Below, in pieces: positions 9,301 to 64,000 of a stretch of DNA of 64,000 bases (the stretch's first letter is position 1; every line of letters begins with the position of its first letter). The notes below the pieces were generated by a model, which did not search any database, was not told where the DNA came from, and saw nothing but the letters and a program-made list of their open reading frames with translations. The position numbers and the translations under genes were made by a program. Source of the DNA: a virus. The stretch spans positions 29,880 to 93,879 of the IMG/VR virus record IMGVR_UViG_3300028388_005362. The stretch is one strand, 5' to 3'.

Positions 9301-12300
9301 CGTCCATGGACCACATCTCTGGAACCTTTGCGCAAGAAAGGAAGCTCTTCACGTGAAGGCCGTGAGCTGTACAACATCTCTGCCGCTGAGCACGAACTCT
9401 TCAAGATGGGTATGCTGATGACCGACGTGAGTGATGAGAGCGGAAACAACAAACGTATCATTAACGTCACATATCCGACCAATTCGGATAAGACCACACA
9501 GATCGGATTCCAGATAGAAGCTGCTGATCTGCAGTTGGATCGTGAGGGTAACCTGGACTCCGACTCCCTTGAGTTGTTATACGAGGCGTTGGTTGCCCCG
9601 GAAATACAGCGGGTTCGTCAGGCAAGACAGGGCGGAATCGATGCAAACAACAAGGCGTACTCCAGCGGAGCCAGGTGGTTCATGCTGATGCCTGAGATAA
9701 ACAATATTGAAGGAATCTTCTACGAGGACGGGCGTTTGAACGAGGACATAGAGGGGGAGATGAAGCAGAAGATCATAGAGGTACTCCAAAGCTATGTCAA
9801 GCAGTTAGCGGAAAAGAAAGTATCCGACTGGAACGACATGGGTATAATCACCAAAAGCTCTGAGCTGGATAAGCGTTACCGCGATCACCTCAGTGCCGTA
9901 GATGAGAATAAGCAGCTTCAGGGAGCAGCCACCGATATGGTAGCCCAATACCTGGTAGCCAATGCCGAAATATTCAAGATGTTCATCGGTGACCCGGCCC
10001 AGTTCTATAAGACCTCTGTTTACAAAGATGTCAAAAAGAGACTGGTAGCTGAAGGCGTGGTTACACAACAGCAGGCCGCTGATATGAGCAACCGGGAAGT
10101 GGAAGAGCACTTCACCTCCGATGACATCATTCAGATCGCTGAAGATACTTTCCTCAATGTAGGTAAGCGGTTGGCGGGTGATATTGCTCCGGGACAGGAG
10201 CTGGCAGGAACCGACCGTCAGTACCACCCCATCAAGACAACCAAGCGCAGGTTTGGCAAGAGCAAGACCCGTAAGTTCTCCCGTGCCAACGATACGGGAA
10301 AACAATACAAGACTGTGGTACTCCAAGACTTTAAAGGAACGTCCACAGCCATGAAGCAACTCAAAGAGCTGTTCAAGGATGACCCCAAGGTAGCCGCCCA
10401 GTACGGCGGATTCGAGTCCACTGATGCACAGGAGTATACTACATGGGAAGAGCACCTTAACATGATGCTCTGGACAGGTAAGTTATCCGAGGAAGAGTAT
10501 ACCAATTTCTACGATAAACTCTCCCAGGGAGAAGACCTGGGCAAGAAGGACCTCAAGAAGGTACTCCAGCCCATGAAGCCGGTATATGTCTACAATACCG
10601 AAGACAAATCCGGAACATACGACCGCCGTGTGTATGTCAAAAGCTCCTCCTTCCCATTGATTCCTCAGCTGGTACGGGGATTGGAATTGGAGAAGCTGGC
10701 TAAAGCCATGCAGACACAAGGCATTCAACGCGCTGCATTTGCTACGGCGGTCAAGGTGGGTGCCCCTGCTAAGCTCGCCCAGGTGTTCAATACCGACGGT
10801 ACGATAAAAGATGATTTGGATTTTACTGATTCCCAGTTGACTCTGGAGCGTGCTGGACTTCGTATCCAGCAGCAGATTCCTTACGATGGTTCCAAAGCCT
10901 CCATCAACCGTGTATCTCAGGCGATGAAGAACTTCATGGTGAACATGATGGATGTGGAAGGATTCAAGGTCAAGTGGCATAACGACGGCAAGCCCATTAA
11001 CGGTCGCGAACTTCACTCTTTGTTCCTGGAGAACTACGAGAAGCTGTTCGAGATGAGCAAGGAAGAGCTGTTGGAAGAACTGCAGGATAGCGATGGTAGT
11101 TTCTCCCAGGATAAGATCATCAAACTGTTGCGAAGAGAAGCTATTGAGCGTGACTACCCTATGAGTGAGGTAGAGATGACCGAGTACGAAGACTTCCTTC
11201 GCATGATGCCTTATCTGCCCTCTGCCGATAGATTTGAGGCCCTTTTGAACTCCATTATAACCAATCGCATTGTCAAGCAGAAAATGCCTGGTAAATCGTA
11301 TGTATTGGGTGCTCAGGAAGGCTTTAAGACTTTGGATGAGTTGGACAATGATACCCGTGCCGGTATAACATTCACTCCCGCTTTTGATGGGGAGTTGAAG
11401 AGCAACCAGGTATTGATTCCATGGAAATTCAAGACCCCCGACGGTAAACTGATCAACATGCGTCAGTTCGTGGGCAAGGACGGCAAGATTGACATGGACA
11501 GGCTCAGTCCTGAGGTACTGAAAATATTTGGTATGCGTATTCCAAACCAGGGACCTATGTCACAACGGTCACTGGAAATCGCCGGGTTCCTGCCCAAGGC
11601 TTCCGGAGACCTTATCATTGCTCCTCGTGACCTTGTGGTACAAATGGGTAGTGACTTTGATGTGGATAAGCTCTACACTTACATGTACAACGTAGAGGTG
11701 GTTGGAAGCAAGGAACATCCCCAGCTACTCAAGTTCGTATACAGTGAAGGTAAGCACAACAAGCACAAAAAGTACAAATTTCATAAGAAAATAGATACTG
11801 ACACAGAGCGTGAGATGACCGAGGTTGAAACCATCCGGGAGCTTACCCGAATGGAACACCAGAACAAGGTCATCGACATCATGCACGCTGTTCATGAGAA
11901 CCCTGACCGCTCCGTACAAAAGCAGATCCACACCCCGTTAGGATTCTGGCATTTGCCTGAGGTAGCCCAGAAGGTTACAAAGGCCCGCCGTGCCCGTATG
12001 CAAGGAGGAGATTTGTTCACCGGACTCTCTGATGCCTACCAGCGTCAGAAGTACATCAACGCTACTGCAGGTAAGTCTGGAACAGGAGTATTCGCTAAGG
12101 ATTCTGCCTTCAATGCCACCATCCAGGGGGTGGAAAAGCCCATGAATCTGAGAGGTAAAGGCAAGAGACCATACACGGTCACTTTCGGAAACCGTAACAG
12201 CGGAAAACAGGGACTCAATAGCCCCATGGCACTGGATGGCAAGACTTACAAGAGTGATGTCATCTCCGGATACCTGTCTGCGGCTGTGGATAACGAGAAG

Positions 12301-18200: not shown

Positions 18201-19034
18201 AAGTACGATGAGAATGGTAATCTCAAAGAAGGCGAGGAAGTCGACGAGAAGGCATTCATTGACACCAAACTCCGCATCGACAAACTCAACAAGATCTCCC
18301 ACGGTAATTACGACCCTGACCTGACATTGTCGGTCAAGCGTAAGTTTTTGGGAAGAGCTTTCTCTCAGTTCCGTACCTGGGCCTTTATGGGATTTGCCAA
18401 CCGTTTTCAGGCAGGCTTTTATGATAACCAGTTGGGATATGAGAGAAAGGGAAGATACCGCTCTTATAGCGCACTTGCCCAACAAATAGGCAAGGTGATG
18501 AAACAGGAGAGCGGGTATAGGGCAGCAGCCTTTGGTGCCAAAGAACTGTTGCGTGCAGCTACCTTCGGGGTATATAACCCGGAAAGCGGTATGGTAGAAG
18601 GACTCAGCGAGGTGGATCAAGCCAATCTTCGAAAGAACCTGATGGAGCTTTATCTCTATCTGGCGTTGGCAATCCTGGTGAGGGCATTCTCAGCCATGGC
18701 AGACACAGACGATGACAAAGAGGCGACATGGAAGTATAGTACTTTCTTCACCATCAATATCCTTGCCCGTCTGCAGACTGATATATTGTTCTACACGAAT
18801 CCGTCGGAATTTGAACGATTGCAGAGAAACGCTCTGGCTGTATTCTCTTTGGTGGTAGACAGTCAGAAGGCTCTGGATTCCACATATAATTGGATGGTCG
18901 GGGGCGACGACATTCTCCAAAGGGGGCCTAATAAAGGGGAATCAAGGATGCTTCGTGACTGGTCTAAATTGATTCCCATGTGGAATCAGAAGTATCGCAT
19001 GGAGGCAGCGTACTCGATGATATTCGACCGTTAA
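15228..19034 (+). CDS. Large internal virion protein (likely ATG start at 15237)
   Basis: 1,268 aa, helical, with HGNY..QFRTW motif and a hydrophobic C-terminal segment; follows the vRNAP. Confidence 0.65.
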   Translation: MLIMGKANCQIFPTAPNGKDSNLFKDVLESTGSREAATYAYGYARSEEFRYKMGDWLYKNPHNPYKGTLDQNGEPIMADLTEVLITKDFEMPQTQDDRFKPLHKVRELEKRDLYKQLGEFKRKLKETEKDVDRVKYRQLIQRTEQRIDALDMEMEDMLKKSSLEEIEQYARQDLDRAWDILQKDEITPGEMYLVGHIISLWQKAGDFSEDDHLFFDQAELEARREGLKEITDKFLEWKDEADHMYTNYLLPLQRNMVESSVKETFGENASSGLDNSRKDKSWAVLNFLDITETSDTLLQAMGAWVKTAQFKAHQESEAVMAEIDQLIKESGVKDFDLFMQTFSNEDSRLTGNLVFRWTQAYFDESKRQKARLHKARNQAMLIEDPKERGRKIAKIHQNYFRQMAKRSITFDLRKLFPDADMYNETSFTEEERRNHEAELRLHLGDKGYERFIEDAEELLEDYKKDREAYMLELEAEFQDEMSAGDTSNFDVHLRVWEMSNSPYWHAQFQEEGYPSKGIQGMYAKPTSRYVKTVPRRFDTDGNDTGYYDKKYEQIEADEKKLKLYDYIFDTLKQSREYLPNHKISFMQVNTLPMIEKTVLETFARDGMLSGAAGMWESLKKATRSDALSDTEYNDIDPLTGEAGMTHQLAFVSNPTKRVEEYVERKEIEWTGKNGKPESDAELNELLLLKEEWRREATDKLANQKSHDLGMVTKAFAAMALSFKHKALIEPQMTLSYKLMNNSLEQVTNDAGSQMVDKDGNPMKKKGLENMRKMLKDFMETSYYGYPVRIKQGQTKKRVLTPQEKKVRKEIESSMEQLKAMHEKGDLTDAEYNGKQQKLQDQLDKLGGVFTASQFGDMMLKYVQILGLGWNVKAAIANLGFGFISNIIEAADGRSFTIGEYFKAMSLVKSSVLKNMSFNQIETKNAKKIRNMMDKLDVLKDSRYELYKATVGGNKLKEKLNWLDPYNPNARTEYINQASIMVAMLMHDGLWDKYDENGNLKEGEEVDEKAFIDTKLRIDKLNKISHGNYDPDLTLSVKRKFLGRAFSQFRTWAFMGFANRFQAGFYDNQLGYERKGRYRSYSALAQQIGKVMKQESGYRAAAFGAKELLRAATFGVYNPESGMVEGLSEVDQANLRKNLMELYLYLALAILVRAFSAMADTDDDKEATWKYSTFFTINILARLQTDILFYTNPSEFERLQRNALAVFSLVVDSQKALDSTYNWMVGGDDILQRGPNKGESRMLRDWSKLIPMWNQKYRMEAAYSMIFDR

Positions 19035-19522
19035 AGGTCTTTGACCATACTCATACTTACCTGGGTCTGCCATTCACGGGAGACCCTTTTTGCTACCCTT
19101 CTTTTGATGTCAATAACAGTGAGGTCCTTGACCAGACCTTTAAGGACGTTGTTGGCTTGTTCAATACTTGAGAACATCCAGTGCATCCACAAAGTTACCA
19201 TGCCCGTCATTTCGTGGGGCTCGCTCTGGGATATATGCACACAGAGGTTTTCATCCTCTGCACGGGCAGTCAGGGCCTGGATGGTAGCTTCAGAGGCCAT
19301 TATTTCCACCATTTCCCTGTGTTCTGTTCTGAAAAAGTCGGTATTCACCTTGATGGTGTACCCGGAGATGACTCCGTTGGTGATCAGGTTCTGCACCCTT
19401 ACCAATGTAGGAGGAGGGCTAAGTCCTATCTTCACCGCCAAGTTCCGATTTGTGATACTGGCATCCTGTTCCAGGATTTTAAGTATCTCGACGTCTTTCT
19501 CGTCGATGACTTTCTTTTTCAT
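19031..19522 (-). CDS. Lrp/AsnC-family transcriptional regulator
   Basis: N-terminal IDEKDVEILKILEQDASITNRNLAVKIGLSPPPTLVRVQNL..GVISGY is a canonical AsnC wHTH. Length 163 aa fits wHTH plus RAM domain. Confidence 0.88.
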   Translation of the reverse strand: MKKKVIDEKDVEILKILEQDASITNRNLAVKIGLSPPPTLVRVQNLITNGVISGYTIKVNTDFFRTEHREMVEIMASEATIQALTARAEDENLCVHISQSEPHEMTGMVTLWMHWMFSSIEQANNVLKGLVKDLTVIDIKRRVAKRVSREWQTQVSMSMVKDL

Positions 19523-22518: not shown

Positions 22519-23928
22519 TTATGCTTTTATTTCGAAGTCGGGTCCCGTTTCATTGGGATTGTCCATTGACAGATCCACCAAGCGGCCTTTGAGCAGCTCA
22601 ATGACCTCATCCAGTTCGACGTCTTCAATATCACGAGAAGCCATCTCATGACGCTTGACGCGCAACTCCTGCAAACGCTCACTTACTTTGGAGCGTTCGT
22701 AGTCCAGAAAGTCCACTTCGAAATACTTAGTATCTACCTCACGAATTTTCCCGTCCTCGTCCAGTTCACACACCGCATAAGGGTAGTATCTGCTGGTACG
22801 CATCTTCTCAAAATTGTAGTCGTAAGGAACTGCGGCAACGTCAGCCGGATTGACCAGGCATGCCAGGACAAAACGGTCTTCCTGATGCCCCCCAAACATT
22901 TTCACATACCCGGGTGCACCTACGTGCAGACCGGAAGAACATGTGTTGTTCGGGTTGGTATCGCAATCTTCCATTGGCATTTCCACTGGGGTCCCCAGCT
23001 TGATGGTCATGCGGCGGCTGTGAATGTCGGTGAAGACATCTTCGCCATCGGTGGAGACCTTGAACTTTTGGATGAGTTCTTCGTACAGCTGTTCGAGGTT
23101 GCCCAGGTGATGCCACAACTCTGTTTCGTTCACCAGAGCTTCGACCTCAGGATTGGTCAGACGCTGGTATCCCAAACTCTCAGCCAAGGCTAAGCCGGCC
23201 TCAAATGTATAATCCGGGTTGTTGTACTTGAAGCGTTCGTATGCCTGGTTACGGTCGAAGTCGTCCTGCAGATACTCCACAACATGGTCCCACTCACGCT
23301 CATCTCTCCAGAACTCCACATTTCTTTCCACGATCTCTGCCCACTCCTTGGGAGTGTATAGCATGAATCCATCATCTTCGTCTTCTCCCTGTCGGAACAC
23401 CTCGTAATCCTGAGGCTTGCGTCCGTTGGAGATATGATAGAGGAATTTGCCGGAAATAAAAGCTGCATAGTTCTTGAAGGATTGTCCTTTCCACAGAACA
23501 GATTTGTAGGCGATAAAGTAGCCGTGGTCTGTGATTGGGAACTGGAAGCGGTCTGCAAATGAGAACAAATCATCCTTGACGTGCTCATTCTCATTAGTCA
23601 TTAGCAGACGCCAGAAGTTGATCAGTGGGTCAACTCCCAGCTCATCCTCTTCTCTTTCCTTGATGCGGTCGACCATCAGCTGAGGTAAGGCACGACGGAT
23701 ACCATCGAGGAAGTACTTACCCTTGCGGTTCTTTTTGAGTACACCTTCGGTGGTCATGAAATCATCTGAGAAAAATTCAGCAAGCATGCTGGGCCAGTCG
23801 ATCAGTTTTTTGGCGTCCTCAACCATTTGCCTGGCGTGTTCCTCTTCTTCGAAGGGAACCTGATACTGTTTTCCATTAACATACGCAGTTACAGTACTAC
23901 CACTGCGCATTACAATAGGTTTTGCCAT
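22519..23928 (-). CDS. rIIB: rIIB-like protein
   Basis: ITDHGYFIAYKSV, CDTNPNNTCSSGLHVG, VNPADVAAVPYDY..KMR motifs. Confidence 0.85.
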   Translation of the reverse strand: MAKPIVMRSGSTVTAYVNGKQYQVPFEEEEHARQMVEDAKKLIDWPSMLAEFFSDDFMTTEGVLKKNRKGKYFLDGIRRALPQLMVDRIKEREEDELGVDPLINFWRLLMTNENEHVKDDLFSFADRFQFPITDHGYFIAYKSVLWKGQSFKNYAAFISGKFLYHISNGRKPQDYEVFRQGEDEDDGFMLYTPKEWAEIVERNVEFWRDEREWDHVVEYLQDDFDRNQAYERFKYNNPDYTFEAGLALAESLGYQRLTNPEVEALVNETELWHHLGNLEQLYEELIQKFKVSTDGEDVFTDIHSRRMTIKLGTPVEMPMEDCDTNPNNTCSSGLHVGAPGYVKMFGGHQEDRFVLACLVNPADVAAVPYDYNFEKMRTSRYYPYAVCELDEDGKIREVDTKYFEVDFLDYERSKVSERLQELRVKRHEMASRDIEDVELDEVIELLKGRLVDLSMDNPNETGPDFEIKA

Positions 23929-26293
23929 ATAGCGATTTGAAATTTAAAAGGGATTTTAGATATGAGTTGAAATATTTTTCGGGATTTGAGTCATCCACCA
24001 TCAGCCTGGTGATGAGTGAGCGGGAAGTCTCCCTAACTCCTGTAATCCAGAGATTGTCTTGCAGGAACCGGTATATCAACCGATGCACAGAGAACATGTC
24101 GTAGTTGACTCCGTCCACAGTATGAATAATATCAGCATGCAGACTGGCGTAAGGCCCCCAATTACGGAAAGGTATATACGGAAGATCCTTCTTTACCCGG
24201 TGCTCTTTATAAAAGGACCTGTATACTCCATAGAGTTTTTCCAGACGGCTGTCTTTGACAAGGTGCCTGATAGCCTCATACTGCTTGTTGAAGTCAGGAA
24301 AAGCAACAATGAAATAACTGCGGGCAATATCCTTGGCAAATACCTTCATTGCCTGGTTCGGGGACAAGAATCTTGGGTTGTCCCTGAAATACTTCAGATT
24401 AGCCTGACTCACCCGGGCAAAAGCCACCCTTTTAGAGAATCTATTGTACCCTGTAAAGCTCATGCCTTCAAACTTTTTAAGCGATTTAAGCGAAAGCGCC
24501 AGGTTCTCTAAACGATTGGTATCATCCATGGTACCTACAACAAAGAGTAATTTTTCGGAAGCCTCAAAGATGTCAGCTACTTTGTGGTTGTCCGTATACC
24601 AATAGAAATCATAACAGGTACTTGGTTGAAGCAATCGGAAAGTGATTTTTTCGTTTCCTCTTTTTCTTTCCCGCTCTTCCTTGAGGTCTGATTCGTACTG
24701 CTTGATCCACTCGTCAGGAACTTGGTGCTCTTCATAGCTGTCCACATTGTGTAGCAAGTAATTGCTTATGTACTCTCGGTAGAATATCACGGCTTTGTCC
24801 TGGGTTTCCTGGGGAATTTTCATGGCTTCGCCAGCAGCTATTTTAGCGAACACATTTTGGTTGTAGTTCCTTGGGCGGATCAAGTAGATATTGTTTCCGT
24901 ACTTCTCATTCAGGTACAATGCTTTACGCTTTGACACTTTTTCTTCTTGGACGCGCAGGCACACAGTATCCTTGTCCCAATAGCGGTTTTTATATTGAGA
25001 GGAAAAACCCCACAAATAAGCACCTACCTGGAATTCGTGTTTGGGCTCCCGCCCATCAGCTTCGTCTTTTTTGTAACTTTCGCTCTCTGATGCCACCTTT
25101 AGCACTTTCCCACGGGCCAGTTTTCTTTTGACCTCGTACTCAAAGAATGGGTTTAAAGGAATATCAAATTTCATTTGATTCTCCTTTTCAAAGGCTTCAA
25201 AGGGAGTGAAGACTACATGGTTCTTTATTTTGAAAGGTACCCAAAGGTTGACATCCTCTGTAAGAGGGATGTAGTCTAAAGACCTTCCTTGTAGATACTC
25301 TTTCAAATCGTCGAACCGCAGTTTATTTCTGGTTATCTCAAAGAGTTCCAGCAGCATATCGACAATTTTATTGACTATCTTCTCGGCAACATCGTCCTTG
25401 TACTCAAGAGATTCTCGGGACATGGTCACCGGCAGCTGCCCTACCTCAAAGCGAAGGGCAACAGGAGTATAAAGTACTTTGTCAACATTGGTTATCTTGG
25501 CAAATCGCTCAGAGATCCTCTTGGTGAGAAGTTCTTTGATATGGGATTCGCTGATGGGATACCGGACACGCCCCAGGGCAATCTCCAATTTTTCTGGGGT
25601 ATTGCTTGGGTTGTAAAGGAATGTTTTTCCTTTGATTATCTGGAAGTCATTGTCGGCTGTTATGAATCCTTGGTAATACAGCTCTTCGAAGTAGCGAAGC
25701 TGGTTTTTGATGGCTATCTTGAACAGATCTTCGTCCTTAACGGACTTCAACGATATGCTCACCTGGGTTCCATTGCCTTTTTCGGTTTCATAGGAGTCCA
25801 TCAGTTTGATGGAAGGGGCTTTCTCGCCCCGGTGTACCGTGTAGATGTACTCTGTACCGGCAAATCGGGTGCGCACATTGAATGCGTCCACGTATGCCAG
25901 AGGTGACTTGGCGCCAATACCAAAACCACCGATCTGTCCGTTGGTCTCTCTTTTGGTGGAAGAAAAGTACTTGGCGTAAATCTTGGCGACCCTTTCACGA
26001 GACATACCCACACCGAAGTCTTCCACTACAAAACGAGCCGGAAGGTCAGAGGATGGGTCCGAGGGAAATAACGAGACGAGTACGGGCTTATCGACCTTGG
26101 CTTCTATATGTGAGTCGACGCCATTAGAGACGATTTCCCGCACGATTGACCCTATCTTATCCGAATAGGTGGAATCGGAGAAAACCTTGAAGAAAATGCC
26201 CAAAGATTCGCTGTCAAGGGCAAATTCCTGCTCTGCTATATTCTCACCACCGATAACTTCGGTAGTGGTATCTTGAACTTGATCAATTATCAT
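23897..26293 (-). CDS. rIIA: rIIA-like protein (GHKL/Hsp90-type ATPase N-terminus)
   Basis: REIVSNGVDSH, DFGVGMS, STKR..NGQIGGFGIGAKSP; adjacent to rIIB. Confidence 0.88.
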   Translation of the reverse strand: MIIDQVQDTTTEVIGGENIAEQEFALDSESLGIFFKVFSDSTYSDKIGSIVREIVSNGVDSHIEAKVDKPVLVSLFPSDPSSDLPARFVVEDFGVGMSRERVAKIYAKYFSSTKRETNGQIGGFGIGAKSPLAYVDAFNVRTRFAGTEYIYTVHRGEKAPSIKLMDSYETEKGNGTQVSISLKSVKDEDLFKIAIKNQLRYFEELYYQGFITADNDFQIIKGKTFLYNPSNTPEKLEIALGRVRYPISESHIKELLTKRISERFAKITNVDKVLYTPVALRFEVGQLPVTMSRESLEYKDDVAEKIVNKIVDMLLELFEITRNKLRFDDLKEYLQGRSLDYIPLTEDVNLWVPFKIKNHVVFTPFEAFEKENQMKFDIPLNPFFEYEVKRKLARGKVLKVASESESYKKDEADGREPKHEFQVGAYLWGFSSQYKNRYWDKDTVCLRVQEEKVSKRKALYLNEKYGNNIYLIRPRNYNQNVFAKIAAGEAMKIPQETQDKAVIFYREYISNYLLHNVDSYEEHQVPDEWIKQYESDLKEERERKRGNEKITFRLLQPSTCYDFYWYTDNHKVADIFEASEKLLFVVGTMDDTNRLENLALSLKSLKKFEGMSFTGYNRFSKRVAFARVSQANLKYFRDNPRFLSPNQAMKVFAKDIARSYFIVAFPDFNKQYEAIRHLVKDSRLEKLYGVYRSFYKEHRVKKDLPYIPFRNWGPYASLHADIIHTVDGVNYDMFSVHRLIYRFLQDNLWITGVRETSRSLITRLMVDDSNPEKYFNSYLKSLLNFKSLYGKTYCNAQW

Positions 26294-43846: not shown

Positions 43847-46800
43847 CTATAAGACCACTACTCGAACAAGTTTTCCGTCTAACCAGAGGTCTTCCCAGCC
43901 GGTGAAACGTACTCCGTTGTGAGGGTAGAAGCGTGCCTCTGTCCCATGAATTCTCCAAGTACCTTTTGGGGTATTAACCTCTTTGTACTCAGCGGTGAAT
44001 GGAACATTGGTAACTGTGAAATACTCCAGTTTGTGGAAACGTCTGAGGTATTTGACAATACGTACATCCCCTTGAGGGAATTCGTTGTCGTTTGCCAAAG
44101 AAGAAGTCTCATCCAAACCAGTCACTTCACGAGCTGCGCTACGAATTCTGTACTCAGTCTCTACGTTTACATAATACTGATGTACACTATAGAAACCATG
44201 GGTGAGTGTCAGGTCATCGTACTTAGCCAGAGGATCGAACACATACATAGGCTCGATGGTCACCCAACCTTTGTCATAGGTCAGACGATAGTTATCCTTC
44301 TCAACGGTATATTGGTTTCCTGAAACAGAAGTATCAAGGTCACCAACCGCCTTATGGAATGTTCCGTACATATAATCGGCAAGACCGAACCATGCGATTG
44401 CAGGCATACGGGCCATCCCTTGGGCAAGCGTCCAATAGTTGATAGGATTATGCCATTGTGGGACACTATTGTTCGGCTCAGCATCGTAGTCAACCATCAC
44501 CTCCAAAGCAGTCAATCCTGCGTGTGAAGGATAAACGTTACCAAGACCGTCCATTGGAGCCAGATAAACTGTGGACAGAATGTAGTCTTTCTCGTCTCCT
44601 GAACCTCCGGTGATGTAGTAAGCGTATCCTTGAATGTCATGTAACCAGAACCCATTTCCCAGATCGATGCTATCCAAAACTGTTTGGGTAGATGGATTAT
44701 ATAGCCTAAGCCTTGGAAGAGCCTCAAGAGTGCTATAATTAGCAGCAATGTCTCCAGCATCGAAAGTATATACACCGTTGTGCTCATTTGCCTGGGTCAG
44801 AAGAATAGTAGTATTCTCTGACTCGGGGTTAGAGTTACCTGCATACGATATTCCGTTATAGCACTCTATTCTGTAAGTCACATTGTAACGGATTCCGAAG
44901 TCATCTTCCAGTTGAGCATAGACTGCGATTGGCCCCCCACTCATGAGCGTATCTCCACTCTGTGGAATGGCTTGCCACACAATCTTGTTGGTTCCTGACC
45001 TCACTTTCTTTTCAACCTTGAGGTCGTACAGACCAGCAGGACTATTTACTTCTCGGGTATAAACACTCACCTTAGACTTATTGGTCAAATCCCAAATGGA
45101 CCAATTTGCCATGGTCATCGTCGTATAGTCCGCCCACTCAATGAATGGAATATCAGCGATATTCATCTCTCCAGAAAAGTGCATATCTCCCTCAAATATA
45201 GGAGCAGCGGTCAGGTCATAGTTGTACTCGATCTCAGGATAAACTTCTTGGCAACTCAATGGACGTTCATCAAAATACATCATCAATGAACCAGTATTGG
45301 AGTAATTGCCTTCAGTATCGAACACGCGTATAGCCAAAGAAACTGTTTCTCCGACAAGATCGTTATCCTTTGCGATTCGAATCCACTGGTTAATCTCAGA
45401 ATCATGTTTACTCCAAATAACTGCTGTGTCACCTGGTTGCCATACCCATTGGCGCTTTTCCTGGTCTCCGGGTGTAGTAATATCAACATCAATACCAGCA
45501 ATTGGATTATCTCCTGGAGTTATATAAGGGCTCAGGTCAATCCACCACTCATTTCCAGCGGAGCTTGCACAGATGGTCTCGTAGATATTCTGCGTTATTT
45601 CCGGATCACCCTCATTGTTATCATCAATTGGAGTTGGACAATCACAAGTAGGCTCAGTGCCGTCAAAATACAGGGTATATTGAACATGGTTAGAGAAATC
45701 ATACTCGGTATCATATACCCTCAGCCAGATGGTAATCGAAGAACCTTCCAGGCTAACTCCCTGGTCCTTGATGAATTTGAGCTCTGTCTCTCCCTCTACA
45801 TTATTGTAACTGAAGAATGTTCCTTTACCAAATACATGTAGGCTATTTTCGATAGCTTCTGTACCAGTATCCAGGTCAATTCCAGCAATAGTCTGTCCAT
45901 TGGTAGTGATGTGAGAATCAAGGTCTGTCAAATACGCACAGGTATACCAGTCAATATTATAACATACCGTGTCTGTAATTGGCGTTTGAACACTCGGAGA
46001 ATCTGCAGGATTGATAGTGTCCACCAGACATTCACAAGTGGTTTGTGAAGGTTCAAAATACAACGTGATTGTAGAAGTAGTACTGGTATCCCCATCTGTA
46101 TCAAACACTTGAACATCGAAAGTTATTGAATCTCCGTCCAACAGCCCATGTTCTTGTGGGTAGATACGAATAAGTAAGGGGTTGTCTGCCCCGTGTTCTG
46201 TCCATAGGAGAGCCTCCGGTGTTTCAGTGGCTTCTTGGAAACCCGCCTGAGAAACATTCATATCTATACCCTCAACAATCTGGTCGTTATTATCCACGTA
46301 TGGGCTCATATCGAATAAGTATCCCAGACAATCCTGAGCCACCGTCCCACACAAAGTATCATTGATAGGTGAGGTAACAAGTGGAGGACAGCTGATACAA
46401 ATAGTGTCCATTGTACAGGCGCAAGTGGAGTCAGTACCATCGAAGAAAACAGTCAGAGTCTTGTAATCACTGGTGTCTCCCTCAGTATCAAAGGCTACCA
46501 TACCCAATATCAGTTCTTGTCCCTCTACACTTGCATTTTCTTTCTCGTAGAAATCGATGACAAATGGAGAAGCAGAATCGTGGTCTGTGTAATATGTACC
46601 ATAGAACCAGTTGGTGTAGGTGTCTTGGAAACCAGCTATGTCCGTATCAATGTCCAAACCAACGACTGTTTGACCGTTAGCGTCAATATAATCGCTAATA
46701 TCAAACCTCCAGCCAGGACAATCAGCTGCTTTGTTGTAACAAGCAGTCACATATACATCAGACAGTATTGGTGGGTCCAGTGGGTCAGGAGTTGAATCTC

Positions 46801-48844
46801 CGTAAGTACAAGAACAGTTGGTCAATGTATCGTTGAAGTATACCTGCAACGTAACAAAATCACTGCCGTTGCCTTCTTCATCCACCACACGGGCTTGTAT
46901 TTCCAAAGTATCTCCAGCGATGCTGTCAAAATATCCAGGGTTTGGAGTTACCCAGAACTTGGTTAAAGTATCTTGCTCGTAGTCTGTCTCAAAGGTTACA
47001 TACTCCAGAACATTTATACTGTCCATGTCCACTCCCAGGTCAAGGTCTATTCCTTGCAAGGTCTGACCATTGAGGTTAACATACGATGCAAGATCAAAAC
47101 TCCATCCAGCACAAGTCGATGTATCGATGTCATAACAGGCTTCAAACAATACAGGGTCTTGAGTAATTTCCGGAGCTGCTTGTTTGACTATATCACCCAG
47201 GCAAATACACTCGCTGTCCCCATTGGGGTCAAAGTATACTGAGGCAGTATAATAGTTTCCTACATCACCGTCCATATCGTAAGGATACATAGCAAGATAG
47301 AGTGTGTCCCCTGAAGGATTATACCCAGAGTCCGCTTCGAAAATCACTTCCTTGTTGTACACACTTCCCGGACGAGCATGCCAGGTTCCTTGTGCATAAG
47401 CATAGAAGGTGTTCTGGTTTCCGGAATCGGCAGTATTTAGATCTAACCCATCGAGCTCTTGACCATTCTCATCGATAAAATCTGACAGGTCAACCACCCA
47501 AGTATCACACCCTGAAGGTTGGTTGGCAGAAACAACCGCAAGAGAAGTTCCAGACATTTGTGGAGCATTCGACACCACTCTGCTGCCAAAGTCAGATACT
47601 TCAACAGTAATCGTAGCAGAATCAGTCCAATTACCATACTGGTCCTTATAGCGATACTGGAATGTGTGTTGAGTACCTACTGAAGGCATTGTTTGTCCAT
47701 CACGTAAGAACACCCAGAAACTTCCATTACCATAGAAATAGGAGCCTCCAGAAGAAGTCTTGTAGTAATGACTTTTTACTTTGTAAGGCCCAAAATCAAA
47801 TGAATCATCTACTGCCGCTGTGGCGGGGTTTAAGTCAAGCTCTATATCATGGTATCCCCCGTTACTTCCCGCATTATCGTCAGCGCCAGCGGTAACCCTC
47901 AGATTCTTGAGGATAAAATTGTGTCCGACATGGTACTGCTGTGACTTGTCGAAGTAAACCAAATCATCAAAGATCTTGACCGGAGAAGAACATAAAGAAT
48001 CTCCAGAAGGACTCTCTACAATATTCACGTTCAAAGCCGTGAAGTGGTCGTTATTGATGTGGTCATAGTTTCCTGCATAGTAAACTTTGTCCCAACCAGT
48101 AAAGTTAGTGTCCTGTGAGTCAAGAAAGAATGTGTAGGAATGACCGTAAGGCTCTCCTTCTCCGACTTGCCCCTCAGAAGGCCAGGTAATTACACCTGAG
48201 GCGTCTGTTGGTATAACCCCAGCAGGCTCAGCATTATAATTGTATTCCTGATAGTTGAAATTAAGCGACCTATACCCAGCTCTATCGCCCCACAATGGGT
48301 TTTCTATGGCGTCTTGAGTATAACGTATATCTACCTCTTTTGGCCCTGCTGGCTGAGCCATAAATTGGGAAGTACGGCTAATATCCGTTGTGCCCCCTGG
48401 TTGATAATACCTATACGTGAACTCATTGATCGTTGTTCTTGGAATACCGTGAGATTTGAAATAAAATTCACAGTATCCAGAACCAATAGAGTCCACCCAT
48501 ATCTGAAGATAGTCTTCAGCGTTATGGTAAATGGTCAAGGTGTCCACCCAAGCTCCTGTGTGAGTTTTGAATTTCACAGAATCTATGGTGCCTGTGATAT
48601 TATCAGATAGAGCCCGATTCCATCCTTGCGGGTTATCGATGTTGCCATCAGTGTCATAAAGGGAACCTACGCTTTCCCAGTAGATACCTGACTGAGAGAA
48701 AGCTCCCAGGGAAAGCAACATAACCATTGCTGTTGCAACAGTTCTGCGAAAATTTAGACTCTCAATAAATGAGGTCAGGGCATACAAGACGCCCGCTCCA
48801 GCCATGCCAAGCATGAGTAGAGGAAACAATACAAGTTTGTTCAT
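43847..48844 (-). CDS. 1,665-aa exported/surface protein with tandem Ig/CshA-like repeats
   Basis: Hydrophobic N-terminus; six ~130-aa Cys-containing repeats (nt ~45240-47570). Confidence 0.75.
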   Translation of the reverse strand: MNKLVLFPLLMLGMAGAGVLYALTSFIESLNFRRTVATAMVMLLSLGAFSQSGIYWESVGSLYDTDGNIDNPQGWNRALSDNITGTIDSVKFKTHTGAWVDTLTIYHNAEDYLQIWVDSIGSGYCEFYFKSHGIPRTTINEFTYRYYQPGGTTDISRTSQFMAQPAGPKEVDIRYTQDAIENPLWGDRAGYRSLNFNYQEYNYNAEPAGVIPTDASGVITWPSEGQVGEGEPYGHSYTFFLDSQDTNFTGWDKVYYAGNYDHINNDHFTALNVNIVESPSGDSLCSSPVKIFDDLVYFDKSQQYHVGHNFILKNLRVTAGADDNAGSNGGYHDIELDLNPATAAVDDSFDFGPYKVKSHYYKTSSGGSYFYGNGSFWVFLRDGQTMPSVGTQHTFQYRYKDQYGNWTDSATITVEVSDFGSRVVSNAPQMSGTSLAVVSANQPSGCDTWVVDLSDFIDENGQELDGLDLNTADSGNQNTFYAYAQGTWHARPGSVYNKEVIFEADSGYNPSGDTLYLAMYPYDMDGDVGNYYTASVYFDPNGDSECICLGDIVKQAAPEITQDPVLFEACYDIDTSTCAGWSFDLASYVNLNGQTLQGIDLDLGVDMDSINVLEYVTFETDYEQDTLTKFWVTPNPGYFDSIAGDTLEIQARVVDEEGNGSDFVTLQVYFNDTLTNCSCTYGDSTPDPLDPPILSDVYVTACYNKAADCPGWRFDISDYIDANGQTVVGLDIDTDIAGFQDTYTNWFYGTYYTDHDSASPFVIDFYEKENASVEGQELILGMVAFDTEGDTSDYKTLTVFFDGTDSTCACTMDTICISCPPLVTSPINDTLCGTVAQDCLGYLFDMSPYVDNNDQIVEGIDMNVSQAGFQEATETPEALLWTEHGADNPLLIRIYPQEHGLLDGDSITFDVQVFDTDGDTSTTSTITLYFEPSQTTCECLVDTINPADSPSVQTPITDTVCYNIDWYTCAYLTDLDSHITTNGQTIAGIDLDTGTEAIENSLHVFGKGTFFSYNNVEGETELKFIKDQGVSLEGSSITIWLRVYDTEYDFSNHVQYTLYFDGTEPTCDCPTPIDDNNEGDPEITQNIYETICASSAGNEWWIDLSPYITPGDNPIAGIDVDITTPGDQEKRQWVWQPGDTAVIWSKHDSEINQWIRIAKDNDLVGETVSLAIRVFDTEGNYSNTGSLMMYFDERPLSCQEVYPEIEYNYDLTAAPIFEGDMHFSGEMNIADIPFIEWADYTTMTMANWSIWDLTNKSKVSVYTREVNSPAGLYDLKVEKKVRSGTNKIVWQAIPQSGDTLMSGGPIAVYAQLEDDFGIRYNVTYRIECYNGISYAGNSNPESENTTILLTQANEHNGVYTFDAGDIAANYSTLEALPRLRLYNPSTQTVLDSIDLGNGFWLHDIQGYAYYITGGSGDEKDYILSTVYLAPMDGLGNVYPSHAGLTALEVMVDYDAEPNNSVPQWHNPINYWTLAQGMARMPAIAWFGLADYMYGTFHKAVGDLDTSVSGNQYTVEKDNYRLTYDKGWVTIEPMYVFDPLAKYDDLTLTHGFYSVHQYYVNVETEYRIRSAAREVTGLDETSSLANDNEFPQGDVRIVKYLRRFHKLEYFTVTNVPFTAEYKEVNTPKGTWRIHGTEARFYPHNGVRFTGWEDLWLDGKLVRVVVL

Positions 48845-59931: not shown

Positions 59932-60411
59932 ATGCAAACTTACATTGGAACCAAGATCATTGAAGCACGTCCTATGAACAGGGGAGATTACAACCTTTAC
60001 AGGGGCTGGGATATACCCGAGGACGAAAATCCTGACGATACAGGATACCTCGTTCGATACCCCGATGGTTATGAAAGCTGGTCTCCCAGCAAGCAATTCG
60101 AAGCTGCTTACAAGGTGATGGATTCGGATATGGACTTCGGTACCGCACTTCTGGGCCTCAAGCAGGGCAAGAAGATTGCCCGACAGGGGTGGAATGGAAA
60201 AGGCATGTTCTTATTCCTTCTGCCTGCAGGAACCATTCCCAAATCGGCTATCCATGACCCCATGCTCAAAAGCATACTCTCTGACAATGGCAAGGACCAT
60301 TTTGAAGCCTTAGGCTCTATTCGTATGAAAACTGCCGATGACAAGATCCTTACCGGCTGGCTGGCTTCTCAGACAGATATGTTGGCAGAGGATTGGGTAT
60401 TTGTAGATTAA
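59932..60411 (+). CDS. DUF2829 (Tad2-type) protein with N-terminal YIGTK/GYESWSP domain
   Basis: MDFGTAL..LKQGKKIARQGWNGKGMF...WLASQTDMLAEDW. Confidence 0.8.
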   Translation: MQTYIGTKIIEARPMNRGDYNLYRGWDIPEDENPDDTGYLVRYPDGYESWSPSKQFEAAYKVMDSDMDFGTALLGLKQGKKIARQGWNGKGMFLFLLPAGTIPKSAIHDPMLKSILSDNGKDHFEALGSIRMKTADDKILTGWLASQTDMLAEDWVFVD

Positions 60412-60502
60412 CGAAGAAATGAGCTAAACAGAACAAAGTTCTGAGCCCGTACTGACATCCTGTCACAAATGCACACGAAGAGGTATCGTTGGAGGTATCA
60501 CA

Positions 60503-60537
60503 AAAAACAGCCCGCTAAAAAAGCGGGCTATTTTGTT
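60503..60537. terminator. Terminator-like hairpin downstream of the tRNA fragment and the Tad2 gene
   Basis: AGCCCGCT-AAAAA-AGCGGGCT with A/T runs on both sides. Confidence 0.65.
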
Positions 60538-60546
60538 GATTATCAA

Positions 60547-60602
60547 GTGATTCGCCTGGGGCTCGAACCCAGGACCCACGCCTTAAAAGGGCGTTGCTCT
60601 AC
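60547..60602 (-). tRNA. 5'-truncated tRNA-Lys(UUU) fragment (attP core), not a complete tRNA
   Basis: ACGCC-CTTTTAA-GGCGT anticodon arm, CTGGG-TTCGAGC-CCCAG T-arm, 3' acceptor strand GCGAATC; matching 5' strand absent. Confidence 0.85.
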
Positions 60603-60802
60603 GCCCTGCTTAATAACTTCCCTACAGATTAAAAACCACCTCTATTTCTTTAATAACGAGCGTTTGCGATGATTTGCGTCTCATTCTGCAAACATAACAA
60701 TATTTGTTATATTGGCAAAAATGGGCTACTTTTACATCGTCTGAGGTATCATTGGAGGTATCTTTTGAAGAGACCCCAAAAAGATACCTCCGAAGCTCTG
60801 TA

Positions 60803-62020
60803 ATGAAGCACAAAATAAAACTCATCCACCCGTCTATCAAGAGGTTACGCACTGCCGAGGGATACCCCATCATGTTGGAGGTATACCTGGGTCGTGGAGA
60901 CCGGATTCGACTCAAATCGGGGTATCATTTTGACAAAGAGGCAGTCTCAGATACTGGATTGGTACGGGGAAGATCTTCCGCTGCAGTGCAGACAAACAAG
61001 CAACTGAAGCGAATGCTGGACAAAGCCCACCAGATTGATGAGATGCTGGGGGCTGAATACACCCGCAAGCAGTTCATGGATGCCTGGAGGGGGATAGACA
61101 AGGAGGATGACCCCAGTGATTTGTTTAAGTACTTTGAAATCGTGATTCCGCAAAAGCCAAAGGGCAGGACAAGGAACTACTTTGTCACCACCTTAAAGCA
61201 CCTGAAGGCATTTCACCCAGATCCCATACCTATATATAAGGTAGACAAGGACTTTGTGGAAGGATACAGGAAATTTTTGGAGGAATGGCTGGCACCCAAT
61301 ACCGTCAGAACGCATCTATCTAAGCTCAGAAACGTGCTCAATCTGGCGGTGGGAGACAAGAATATGGACCTGAAGGGGTATGTACCTCCTTTTATGACCA
61401 ACCGCTTACTCCCTGCTCCCGTGCGCAAGACAAGGGACCGCTCGTTGAATCCCCGGCTGATTCAGCGATTGTTCGAGCTTCCGACAGCCAAAGGCAGACG
61501 CCACTACAAGTCCCAGCGGCTGTATCATTTGTCCTATCTTTGTTATGGGGCTAACCTGATTGACCTGGCATTGCTCAAGCAGTCATCCATCGTTGGGGGA
61601 ACCCTGGAGTTTGACCGCAGCAAAACGGGTCGTCAGATTCCACCGGTGGTGATAACCTCCGAGATGGAGCAGATCTTTGAGGATCTGAAGCCCTACTGCA
61701 AGGAAGATTACCTGGTCCACATCCTCAAGGATGAGTTCAACTGGCACAACGTCAGAACACGGGTTGACCGCTGGGACAGACACATCAACGACTGGTTGAG
61801 CTCAGCCTGTGATGTACTGGGAATACAGCCCAAGGTGACCTTCTATTCGGCCCGGCATAGTTTTGCCCAACATTTGCGCTACGCGGATAAGAGCGATTCG
61901 TTCATTGCCAGGTTCTTGGCGCACTCCTCAGAGAGTACGGTCAAGGGATACCTGGTCAACCATGATGTAAAACAATTAATTGAAGTTCAGGATAGCCTGC
62001 TTCAGCAACGTAAACCATAA
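60803..62020 (+). CDS. int: Tyrosine integrase (Bacteroidota type)
   Basis: Arm-binding N-terminus, SAM-like core, YLCYGANLIDL, RSKT, TFYSARHSFA, LAHS, TVKGYL. Confidence 0.9.
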   Translation: MKHKIKLIHPSIKRLRTAEGYPIMLEVYLGRGDRIRLKSGYHFDKEAVSDTGLVRGRSSAAVQTNKQLKRMLDKAHQIDEMLGAEYTRKQFMDAWRGIDKEDDPSDLFKYFEIVIPQKPKGRTRNYFVTTLKHLKAFHPDPIPIYKVDKDFVEGYRKFLEEWLAPNTVRTHLSKLRNVLNLAVGDKNMDLKGYVPPFMTNRLLPAPVRKTRDRSLNPRLIQRLFELPTAKGRRHYKSQRLYHLSYLCYGANLIDLALLKQSSIVGGTLEFDRSKTGRQIPPVVITSEMEQIFEDLKPYCKEDYLVHILKDEFNWHNVRTRVDRWDRHINDWLSSACDVLGIQPKVTFYSARHSFAQHLRYADKSDSFIARFLAHSSESTVKGYLVNHDVKQLIEVQDSLLQQRKP

Positions 62021-62031
62021 ACAATAAGACC

Positions 62032-63129
62032 ATGGGAGTTTTTAGAGTAGAAAGAGACACTAAGGGGCTGGTGAAGGTTGTGTGGGAGAACCACAGCAAC
62101 CACACCGATCGTTTTGCCTTGTCTACTGGTGTGAAGGTCTCCCAGGAGAACTTCCACTCAGGTCGGGTCTTGGATACAGACCCCCACCACAAGTTCAAAA
62201 ACGAGGTTATCAAGGAGTACTTCTCCGAGATCATCTCTCTGGTGATTCGCTGTAACAAGCAGAACAACCAGACTAACGCCAAACTGTTGGAAGGAATGTG
62301 GAGTGCACGTCAGGACGGAGTCAATTTTGACTATGTCATCCAGTACAAAACGTGGGCCGAAAGCAAATACCTGGATAAGGGGTATAGCGAGCAGACCCTC
62401 AAGAATGTAATGGGACACGCCAATCTGATCTCCGAGTTCGAAGCTCATCGCCGCATGTCCCTGGATGTGTCTGTGTTTGACAAAGCGACCATGGATGAGT
62501 TGGTGGTTTACATGCAGCTGCACAAACAGTATACTGACCAGCACGTGCTGCGCCAGGTCCGAATGGTCAAGACCTTCTTGAGCGAGCGGTATCCTGTGGC
62601 AGACTGGGGCTGGATAAAATATCGTCCGATGTCAACCCGGATTCACTGGCTCAACGACAGTGACATCCAGCTGCTGCAGCGAACACAGCTTGAGCCTCGC
62701 CTTAACCAGGTACGGGAAATGCTGTTGGTGATGATAGGAGGAGGACTAAGTCTGCAGGACATGTTCAGGCGTCAGAAGTTTGTCCGGGGATTCCGTTCCC
62801 GGTACTACGAGCTGGCAATTGAGTTGTACAAGGATCACACTCGTGTGGACCCGGACGAAGAACGCTTTGAGGGCCAGTTGCGTGAGGTTCTCTACAAGTG
62901 TGAGATAGAACGTCAAGTGGAAACAGACAGCGGACAGTACGTACCTTTATATATGGCGGTATCTGGTTCCCTGGGATTTGACACCTATGTGATGGAAGCA
63001 CTCATTCGTGGGTACAGCCCTTACAAGTTGTTCTACAGTTTACCTATGGCCCACTGGCAATTGTTCTATCCTTATATACGAGAGCGGAATCGCTACAACA
63101 AAGAGCTCAAAAAGTTCAAAGGGTTCTAA
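62032..63129 (+). CDS. Degenerate, probably catalytically inactive integrase-like protein
   Basis: LSTGVKV arm region and SAM-like core; GLSLQDM replaces GLR..D and no HxxR. Confidence 0.65.
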   Translation: MGVFRVERDTKGLVKVVWENHSNHTDRFALSTGVKVSQENFHSGRVLDTDPHHKFKNEVIKEYFSEIISLVIRCNKQNNQTNAKLLEGMWSARQDGVNFDYVIQYKTWAESKYLDKGYSEQTLKNVMGHANLISEFEAHRRMSLDVSVFDKATMDELVVYMQLHKQYTDQHVLRQVRMVKTFLSERYPVADWGWIKYRPMSTRIHWLNDSDIQLLQRTQLEPRLNQVREMLLVMIGGGLSLQDMFRRQKFVRGFRSRYYELAIELYKDHTRVDPDEERFEGQLREVLYKCEIERQVETDSGQYVPLYMAVSGSLGFDTYVMEALIRGYSPYKLFYSLPMAHWQLFYPYIRERNRYNKELKKFKGF

Positions 63130-63329: not shown

Positions 63330-63628
63330 ATATAGTCAAACCGGGAGTGGTATTCGAGCTGAAGAATTTGGAGGCTGATTCTGTCCAGACCATTCGGTTC
63401 GTAGAGAAAGTAGCTGGCAAGTTAATGCCCGGAACGACCAACGAAGAAGTCATCCAAATGATGATCGAACGCTTCTACCACCTCCAGAAGGAGGGTCCCT
63501 CGGTGGAAAACCAGATGATTCTCATGCTTTTAAAGGACATCAGACGCACACTGGTTCGCCGACAACAGAAGAAATTCCAGAGAAAACAGCAGGCAGGACA
63601 TGAAAAAGAAGTTAAAAGTACCCTTTAG
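63326..63628 (+). CDS. Tad1-like protein (divergent)
   Basis: QTIRF...GTTNEEVIQMMIERF..LQ....ENQ..L..L.....L.RR. Confidence 0.55.
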   Translation: MDIVKPGVVFELKNLEADSVQTIRFVEKVAGKLMPGTTNEEVIQMMIERFYHLQKEGPSVENQMILMLLKDIRRTLVRRQQKKFQRKQQAGHEKEVKSTL

Positions 63629-63935
63629 CAAACAGGAGTATATTGCCACATACGTAAAGTTGCTCAACGGGGTCTTCGATTTGACCCCCAGAGAACTGCA
63701 AGCCCTCACCATCTTCCTGCAAAAGGATTTGAAGACTCCTGCTACAACTCCCGCCCGTAAAGCCGCTCTGGAGCAAATGAAGCTCACCTCTCCGATGGCA
63801 ATCAACAATCTGGTCAAATCCCTGCGCACCAAAGGAGCTATCCTTGGAGAGCCGGGAGACTACCAATACCACCCCATACTCAGAATAGACAAGAGACCCG
63901 CACAGTTAATATACGAATTCGATGAACAAGTCTGA
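63600..63935 (+). CDS. Putative HTH protein
   Basis: LLNGVFDLTPREL and INNLVKSLRTKGAI. Confidence 0.55.
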   Translation: MKKKLKVPFSKQEYIATYVKLLNGVFDLTPRELQALTIFLQKDLKTPATTPARKAALEQMKLTSPMAINNLVKSLRTKGAILGEPGDYQYHPILRIDKRPAQLIYEFDEQV

Positions 63936-64000
63936 AGCAGTTAAGAACCGAGAAGAACTGGTACGCCAGGTAGCCGAGGAGATAGGCTCTTCTTTGGAAG
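63922..64000 (+). CDS. 3'-truncated IHF/HU-like protein
   Basis: MNKSEAVKNREELVRQVAEEIGSSLE; such genes precede the crAss-like capsid module. Confidence 0.45.
   Translation, partial: MNKSEAVKNREELVRQVAEEIGSSLE

Follow-up and report, generated by a model that had tools for sequence, protein, structure and literature searches.

A tRNA-Lys-derived candidate attP site and an intact tyrosine integrase in a complete circular genome of a crAss-like phage

The locus analysed here bears on how crAss-like phages persist with their hosts and whether some of them could do so by integration. It lies in a stretch of 64,000 nucleotides (hereinafter the window, to which all coordinates refer unless stated otherwise) that spans bases 29880-93879 of the 93,879-bp IMG/VR virus record IMGVR_UViG_3300028388_005362. 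The locus consists of the 3′ part of a tRNA-Lys gene, short exact repeats on both sides of this fragment and the adjacent int gene for a tyrosine integrase (Int), and is probably the attP-int integration module of a complete, circular crAss-like phage that is able to integrate. The cultured gut crAss-like phages have been described as unable to lysogenise (PMC8375218), and the main text of Yutin et al. (2021) makes no mention of integrases. Hints of integrases and prophages are nevertheless already in print: a subset of crAss-like genomes is mentioned as carrying integrases (PMC9980608), prophage remnants as well as a repressor and antirepressors are reported for epsilon crAss-like phages (PMC11054128), and a mouse catalogue contains integrated signals of crAss-like phages (PMC13503771). 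The value of the present case is that of a well-delimited instance with a predicted tRNA-Lys target and an orphan integrase: the mechanism is classical, integration has so far been poorly documented in this group of phages, and an intact int gene with a textbook attP in a complete genome makes a directly testable case that would widen the picture of crAss-like integration from the gut to environmental Bacteroidota. The features that make up the site are the following.

60480-60499, plus strand: P-arm, two direct GAGGTATC arm-type repeats, 12 bp start to start; exact copies, the 20-mer being expected 0.01 times
60547-60602, minus strand: attP core, the 3′ 56 nt of tRNA-Lys(UUU), from the end of the D-loop to the discriminator plus one base (BLAST, Rfam)
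60743-60762, plus strand: P′-arm, two direct GAGGTATC arm-type repeats in the identical 12-bp register; exact copies
60783-60790, minus strand: inverted arm-type copy (GATACCTC on the plus strand), 13 bp upstream of the int start codon; exact
60803-62020, plus strand: tyrosine integrase, 405 aa, with an N-terminal beta-sheet domain, a SAM_5 core-binding domain and a catalytic domain
60861-60926, no strand assigned: three one-mismatch copies of the 8-mer (60861, inverted; 60878; 60919) within the 5′ end of int

The repeats are strongly concentrated at this locus. The 8-mer GAGGTATC occurs 7 times in the window, compared with 1.63 copies expected (none of 100 shuffles reached 7), and five of the seven copies fall within the 311 bp between 60480 and 60790. 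The 20-mer GAGGTATCNTTGGAGGTATC, that is GAGGTATC-NTTG-GAGGTATC, is present in exactly two copies, at 60480-60499 and 60743-60762, against 0.01 expected. With up to one mismatch to the 8-mer allowed, 8 copies are found in 60400-60950 (65 in the 64 kb), where about 0.6 would be expected; the one-mismatch copies near the start of int, within its first 120 bp, may represent additional arm sites or match by chance. Arm-type repeats flank the core on both sides and adjoin int, and the attP spans approximately 310 bp. A scan of IMG/VR with GAGGTATCNTTGGAGGTATC yielded a single occurrence in each of four viral contigs; these contigs were judged unrelated and have no integrase homologue or tRNA near the 20-mer.

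The match of the core to tRNA-Lys begins at GTAGAGCA (60602) and stops at the discriminator plus one base (60547). Read in the direction of the tRNA, the fragment comprises the end of the D-loop and the 3′ strand of the D-stem, the anticodon arm (loop CTTTTAA), a 5-nt variable loop, the T-arm (TTCGAGC) and the 3′ strand of the acceptor stem, GCGAATC, followed by the discriminator A. The anticodon arm and the T-arm pair perfectly, and the fragment is sharply truncated on the 5′ side. ARAGORN detects no tRNA gene in the whole genome, and the Rfam tRNA model gives a partial match only (60556-60610, minus strand, model positions 9-63, 25.5 bits, E 0.005); both outcomes are in line with the lack of a 5′ acceptor strand and D-stem. 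The core is unique in the genome, in which none of its 18-mers recurs even at three mismatches.

The integrase gene is intact, with an ATG at 60803, a stop codon that ends at 62020 and an uninterrupted reading frame in between. The protein matches PF13102 (Phage_int_SAM_5) over residues 139-224 with 50.5 bits (cutoff 22.3) and phrog_1 (integrase) with E 4.9e-25, and scores 26.5 bits against PF00589, just below the 27.1-bit cutoff. In two alignments, of Int with 12 and with 71 relatives, R272, K274, R351 and Y383 are invariant, whereas H374, invariant in the smaller alignment, is found in at least 90% of the 72 sequences of the larger one; the His-II position is occupied by Tyr348, as in the whole subfamily, and the subfamily motifs R-x-K-T and Y-x-A-R-H-S-F are retained. 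The AlphaFold2 model built from the 72-sequence alignment (mean predicted local distance difference test score, pLDDT, 87.7) shows an N-terminal three-stranded sheet plus helix, a helical core-binding domain and a catalytic domain. Its best matches in the PDB are full-length lambda Int (1z1g, 1z1b) and the Tn1549 integrase, and Foldseek assigns a probability of 1.00 to the matches with lambda Int, Tn1549 Int, XerA and Cre. There is no match of Int to PF17293 (Arm-DNA-bind_5) at E <=0.01, and residues 1-60 align with the corresponding part of relatives that carry this domain. In the model, the N-terminal sheet is compatible with an arm-binding domain, and the predicted architecture as a whole fits a heterobivalent integrase that reads arm and core sites, in agreement with the repeats around the core. 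A word-indexed protein search returned three proteins, Int itself and two with 24-25% identity, and no relatives of Int were found in IMG/VR.

Comparison of the core with real tRNA-Lys(UUU) genes by BLAST gives up to 54 identical positions out of 56 (E ~2e-20 per genome). A degenerate pattern of the core, with fixed letters in the acceptor strand, T-loop core, anticodon loop and D-stem only, identified more than 120 loci, almost all of them Bacteroidota tRNA-Lys(UUU) genes. From the variable loop to the 3′ end, a block of 31 nt is exactly that of the core in many Bacteroidales as well as in Marinoscillum pacificum, a marine member of the Cytophagales; in these tRNAs, the anticodon stem differs from that of the core by two or three compensatory pairs. 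The best match was 52/56 in 401 genomes of Bacteroidales, 53/56 in 401 genomes sampled across the class and 54/56, reached in four genomes, in 401 genomes of the order of Marinoscillum, the Cytophagales. The four genomes match the core exactly over a block of 47 nt, from GTAGAGCA through the T-stem (D-loop to T-stem), and only two acceptor positions differ. The core thus combines two variants of tRNA-Lys, each of which is present in Cytophagales, and the phage acceptor strand would form six Watson-Crick pairs and one G-G mismatch with GATTCGG, the 5′ strand of the 54/56 hosts. The host is therefore likely to be an environmental Bacteroidota bacterium, possibly of the Cytophagales, rather than a gut Bacteroides.

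The record that carries the locus is a closed circular genome of approximately 93,864 bp, because its first and last 15 bases are identical (window 63986-64000 against record bases 1-15) and a conserved open reading frame (ORF) runs through the junction. When the ends are joined, an uninterrupted 87-aa ORF arises over the junction; it has homologues in 27 related contigs with the same gene order, placed upstream of TerL between homologues of the 111-aa and 206-aa ORFs. Given that the record closes on itself, phage genes are present on both sides of the att-int locus. IMG/VR labels the record as linear, and CheckV estimates its completeness at 66%, a value that probably reflects larger relatives of ~142 kb.

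The affiliation of the phage is indicated by its virion genes. The major capsid protein (MCP) matches PF23898 (Crass_capsid) with 297.8 bits (cutoff 27 bits), and the 147 phage records that it matches are all apparently crAss-like or FpV4-like, as judged by names and by 25 of the 147 rows. A giant 3975-aa ORF (window 3307-15234) contains a region, residues 2353-2812, that matches the phi14:2 gp66 RNA polymerase (6vr4, E 3.9e-40), and this virion RNA polymerase ORF also matches phrog_16227 (E 1.6e-85). TerL, portal and MCP were assigned to PHROGs 6681, 6547 and 11589, respectively. The best-hit identity of TerL is 41.6%, to Flavobacterium phages of the FpV4/Fpv2 group, and the MCP is 36% identical to that of gut crAss-like phages; nearer, uncultured relatives with 70-81% identity in the MCP come from JGI, ENA, Logan and Tara data and include proteins named from a Prolixibacteraceae metagenome-assembled genome and from Zeaxanthinibacter sp. 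PT1. The 81% identical MCP falls in one 90% cluster with an MCP from an 89,902-bp ENA contig. FpV4 is placed outside Crassvirales in the NCBI taxonomy. The phage is thus crAss-like in a broad sense, from an environmental branch of the assemblage; as to a possible place within the order Crassvirales itself, the analysis covered best-hit identities.

One of the MCP relatives, WP_272592999.1 (77% identical), is encoded on a 1,610,633-bp contig of Zeaxanthinibacter sp. PT1 (Flavobacteriaceae). It probably belongs to an integrated relative, which suggests that relatives of the phage can sit in chromosomes. The MCP found no match in 10 candidate host genomes.

The first-pass annotation of this DNA, made from the sequence without database searches, was borne out in its descriptive part. 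The two GAGGTATC-NTTG-GAGGTATC pairs that flank the core, and likewise the inverted copy at 60783, are exact and stand at the positions that it gave; the 3′ 56 nt of tRNA-Lys(UUU) at 60547-60602 indeed lack the 5′ acceptor strand (BLAST matches of up to 54/56, no ARAGORN prediction, a partial Rfam match); and the tyrosine integrase lies directly beside these elements, the end coordinate 62020 being that of its stop codon. The continuation of phage genes on either side was confirmed by circularisation of the record through the 15-bp overlap and the conserved junction ORF. Its naming of a virion RNA polymerase phage agrees with the gp66 homologue within the 3975-aa ORF (6vr4, E 3.9e-40), and the label crAss-like holds in the broad sense, on the Crass_capsid MCP together with the gp66-type polymerase.

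From this anatomy we infer recombination, a crossover position and maintenance of lysogeny by the phage, along the following lines. The N-terminal domain of Int would bind the GAGGTATC arm sites on both sides, while the core-binding and catalytic domains would bind the tRNA-derived core, in which the stem-loop symmetry of the anticodon arm or of the T-arm could supply the inverted core sites. Int would then recombine the core with the 3′ part of the tRNA-Lys(UUU) gene of the host, predicted to be a Bacteroidota bacterium, with the closest tRNAs in Cytophagales. After integration, the 5′ half of the host tRNA gene would be joined to the 3′ half provided by the phage and to a phage hairpin terminator, so that the tRNA gene would remain whole, and the prophage would have int at one end and a Tad2-like anti-defence gene at the other. 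The hairpin in question lies between the P-arm and the core.

60509-60529, no strand assigned: hairpin whose 8-bp stem has 6 G-C pairs, with T-runs on either strand; from a terminator scan

On the minus strand, the hairpin and its U-run were aligned to the terminator parts of Rfam models. This minus-strand hairpin is separated by ~17 nt from the 3′ end of the tRNA fragment and would serve the tRNA gene rebuilt by integration; on the plus strand, the hairpin terminates the upstream Tad2-like gene. The latter gene, just upstream of attP (59932-60411, plus strand), resembles Thoeris anti-defence 2 (PF11195, 81.6 bits; phrog_872, E 6.4e-52).

The layout resembles that of phage lambda (POP′) and of the Tn916/Tn1549 integrases, which likewise combine a three-domain Int, repeated arms on both sides of the core and an adjacent int gene. 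However, identity with the lambda and Tn1549 integrases is only 12-18% in the fold alignments, the core here is a 3′ fragment of a tRNA gene rather than an intergenic sequence, and, unlike in lambda, no Xis or IHF-type sites were identified at this locus, where arm binding is predicted. By the combination of PF13102 and PF00589 domains, Int is also similar to IntDOT of CTnDOT and to IntN1 and IntN2 of NBU1 and NBU2, and it has relatives that carry PF17293. With the Bacteroidota SAM_5 integrases in general, it shares the R-x-K-T and Y-x-A-R-H-S-F motifs and, by prediction, the type of target, the 3′ end of a tRNA gene. Targets of these integrases are tRNA-Leu and tRNA-Ser genes. The differences are that Int is at most 34% identical to any relative and has no detected PF17293, and that the element here is a 94-kb genome of a virulent-type podophage and not a transposon.

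Within the crAss-like assemblage, the nearest parallels in genomic signs of lysogeny are the epsilon crAss-like phages (crAssE-Sib) and the Parabacteroides prophage remnants (PMC11054128). The crAssE-Sib group has a repressor and antirepressors with no reported integrase or attP (PMC11054128), whereas the phage described here has int and attP and no recognisable repressor. It also belongs to another lineage, its MCP being closest to those of environmental relatives. The cultured, environmental phi14:2 and the phages of the FpV4/Fpv2 group are similar in the virion RNA polymerase homologue (phi14:2 gp66), in TerL (41.6% for the FpV4 group) and in a genome size of ~90 kb. To our knowledge, no integration has been reported for phi14:2 or for phages of the FpV4/Fpv2 group.

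The att-int locus is located in a variable part of the genome. In the interval from the DNA polymerase block to the late operon, the genome has ~21 kb of genes, most of them orphans (window ~41960-63330), which correspond to ~5 kb in relatives; int, the Tad2-like gene and a 365-aa ORF immediately downstream of int are all part of this region, as is a 1665-aa ORF (43847-48844, minus strand) that matches neither Pfam nor PHROGs. The tetranucleotide correlation of the module with the genome is 0.80-0.84, the genome mean being 0.79. The module is a lineage-specific acquisition in a variable region that has been resident long enough to adopt the composition of the phage.

62032-63129, plus strand: 365-aa ORF that starts 11 nt after int; integrase-like only by ESM Atlas features and by the Atlas's own model

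For this ORF, the ESM Atlas gives an integrase feature score of 0.97 and, with its own model, a template modelling score of 0.64 over 292 residues. No similarity was detected by Pfam, PHROGs or NCBIfam, nor to Int by hhalign or BLASTP; the single-sequence AlphaFold2 model (pLDDT 36.6) is unusable, and no relatives were found in IMG/VR. Inspection by eye places AVSGSLG at the position of the ARHSFA motif, with Arg-His apparently replaced, so that Arg-II would be lost. The ORF may be an accessory or directionality factor, which is a weak lead.

The interpretation of the locus as an attP-int module is supported by several features of the site and its context: the arm repeats are exact, two-sided and far above chance; the core is sharply truncated on the 5′ side and matches Bacteroidota tRNA-Lys at 52-54 of 56 positions; Int has the invariant residues and a lambda/Tn1549-like fold; and the genome is closed, with phage genes flanking the locus, a single copy of the core and phage-like composition. 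The 77% identical MCP on the Zeaxanthinibacter contig is also counted in its favour.

A number of observations weigh against this interpretation. An integrase by itself is a weak predictor of lysogeny (PMC9980608). Relatives with 55-60% identity in TerL have no integrase and lack the att-int module, as well as most of the ~21-kb accessory region that holds it. Searches with Pfam, PHROGs and NCBIfam recovered no CI-type repressor, antirepressor or excisionase among the tested flanking and early-region ORFs. A search for one exact 45-nt stretch of the core gave no hit in 185,579 GTDB species genomes (one per species), in IMG/VR or in 241 million JGI metagenome records, and the combination of anticodon stem and acceptor strand seen in the core is present in none of the host tRNAs retrieved. 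A full HMMER scan of 1.84 billion representatives yielded 3,903 relatives of Int, the best of them with 31-34% identity and none above 34%, and in the protein collection the cluster of Int has one member from one contig, which makes it an orphan; therefore, there is no integrated copy in the searched collections.

The first-pass annotation had gone further than the layout, to the free form of a phage that lysogenises at the host tRNA-Lys gene and to a core that could identify the host. Of the first claim, the layout of core, two-sided arms and int is real, and lysogeny at tRNA-Lys is a putative further step: no exact host match, no attL or attR and, among the tested ORFs, no repressor or excisionase were found, and relatives lack the module. 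The second was upheld in part: the core leads no further than to the Bacteroidota, where the tRNAs nearest to it are those of Cytophagales and not of gut Bacteroidales, and it points to no species and has no exact match. The suggested BLAST of the core against Bacteroidota tRNA-Lys genes produced matches of up to 54/56, while the exact 45-nt stretch is missing from GTDB genomes, IMG/VR and JGI metagenomes.

A bolder version of the preferred interpretation, which we regard as tentative and rather doubtful, is that an environmental, virion RNA polymerase-encoding crAss-like lineage is truly temperate. Such phages would integrate at tRNA-Lys in a Cytophagales-type host by means of the orphan Int; the 365-aa ORF, as a degenerate, integrase-shaped paralogue, would serve as a directionality or architectural factor in place of Xis, and the regulator would lie outside the current profiles.

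The main rival, itself unlikely, is that the module is a relic, recently acquired from a temperate phage or an integrative element, in a phage that has lost lysogeny and is now lytic or in a carrier state. This would fit the relatives without the module and its position in the variable accessory region, the lack of a repressor or excisionase among the tested ORFs, the lack of an exact attB in any collection searched, and the PF00589 score just below the cutoff. However, decay would be expected to blur first the very features that are intact here: int is free of interruptions and encodes all residues that are invariant in the family, the five arm 8-mers are letter-perfect, the stems of the tRNA fragment all pair, and the composition is fully phage-like.

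It is quite improbable that the recombinase has another job, such as multimer resolution of an episomal prophage or DNA inversion, and that the tRNA-like piece is a decayed phage tRNA gene. The persistence of crAss-like phages without known integration (PMC8375218), the tRNA genes carried by many of them (PMC13503771) and the fact that no attL or attR is known speak for this possibility. Nevertheless, the exact 47-nt block is common to cellular tRNA-Lys genes, unlike what is seen in a diverged phage tRNA, and the fragment is cleanly cut on the 5′ side and lies between two sets of arm repeats beside int. Neither is there a second copy of the core that could be the partner in inversion or resolution; self-BLAST of the genome detects one inverted repeat, of 35 bp and 94% identity (record positions 73157-73191), ~17 kb from int. 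Furthermore, simple resolvases of the Xer/Cre type lack the N-terminal arm domain that is predicted in the model of Int.

That a separate mobile element has inserted into the phage as the att-int segment, or that this segment is a chimeric assembly, as the absence of the module from relatives and the orphan status of both Int and the 365-aa ORF might be taken to indicate, is highly improbable, given that there is no direct repeat of the core, no flanking duplication and no intact tRNA as a target, that the tetranucleotide correlation of the module is above the genome mean, and that the flanks consist of phage genes in conserved order in a circle that closes through a conserved ORF. Insertion of an element into a tRNA gene of the phage itself was considered and excluded because the genome lacks tRNA genes and the core is present only once. 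The first-pass annotation had named an inserted element or a chimeric assembly as what would count against its reading; the single core copy speaks against the former, and the phage-like composition against the latter.

Several further observations concern the search for relatives and other genes of the phage. Among the 401 Cytophagales genomes, the phage MCP gave one distant match (27% identity), on a 91,990-bp contig that has no other gene in common with this phage. The first 20 kb of that contig are host-like (GC content ~0.39-0.41) and contain a tRNA-Tyr/Gly/Thr cluster; the crAss-type MCP lies in a low-GC stretch (0.28-0.32) that starts at ~50 kb, and a tRNA-Met is located at 64.4 kb. The contig may contain an unrelated crAss-related prophage that runs off the contig end.

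As for potential regulators, an Lrp/AsnC-type protein (19031-19522, minus strand; HTH_24, 51.5 bits; HTH_AsnC-type, 42.6 bits) is encoded where blocks of plus-strand and minus-strand genes meet. The 111-aa ORF near the genome junction (63600-63935, plus strand) shows a weak match to the LexA-type winged helix (Pfam, 23.5 bits; TIGR00498, E 2.5e-4); 12 relatives without an integrase also have it upstream of TerL, so that it is not lysogeny-specific. Finally, genes for an rIIA-like protein (798 aa) and an rIIB-like protein (469 aa) adjoin at 22519-26293 on the minus strand (PHROGs E 1.8e-63 and 4.9e-34, respectively).

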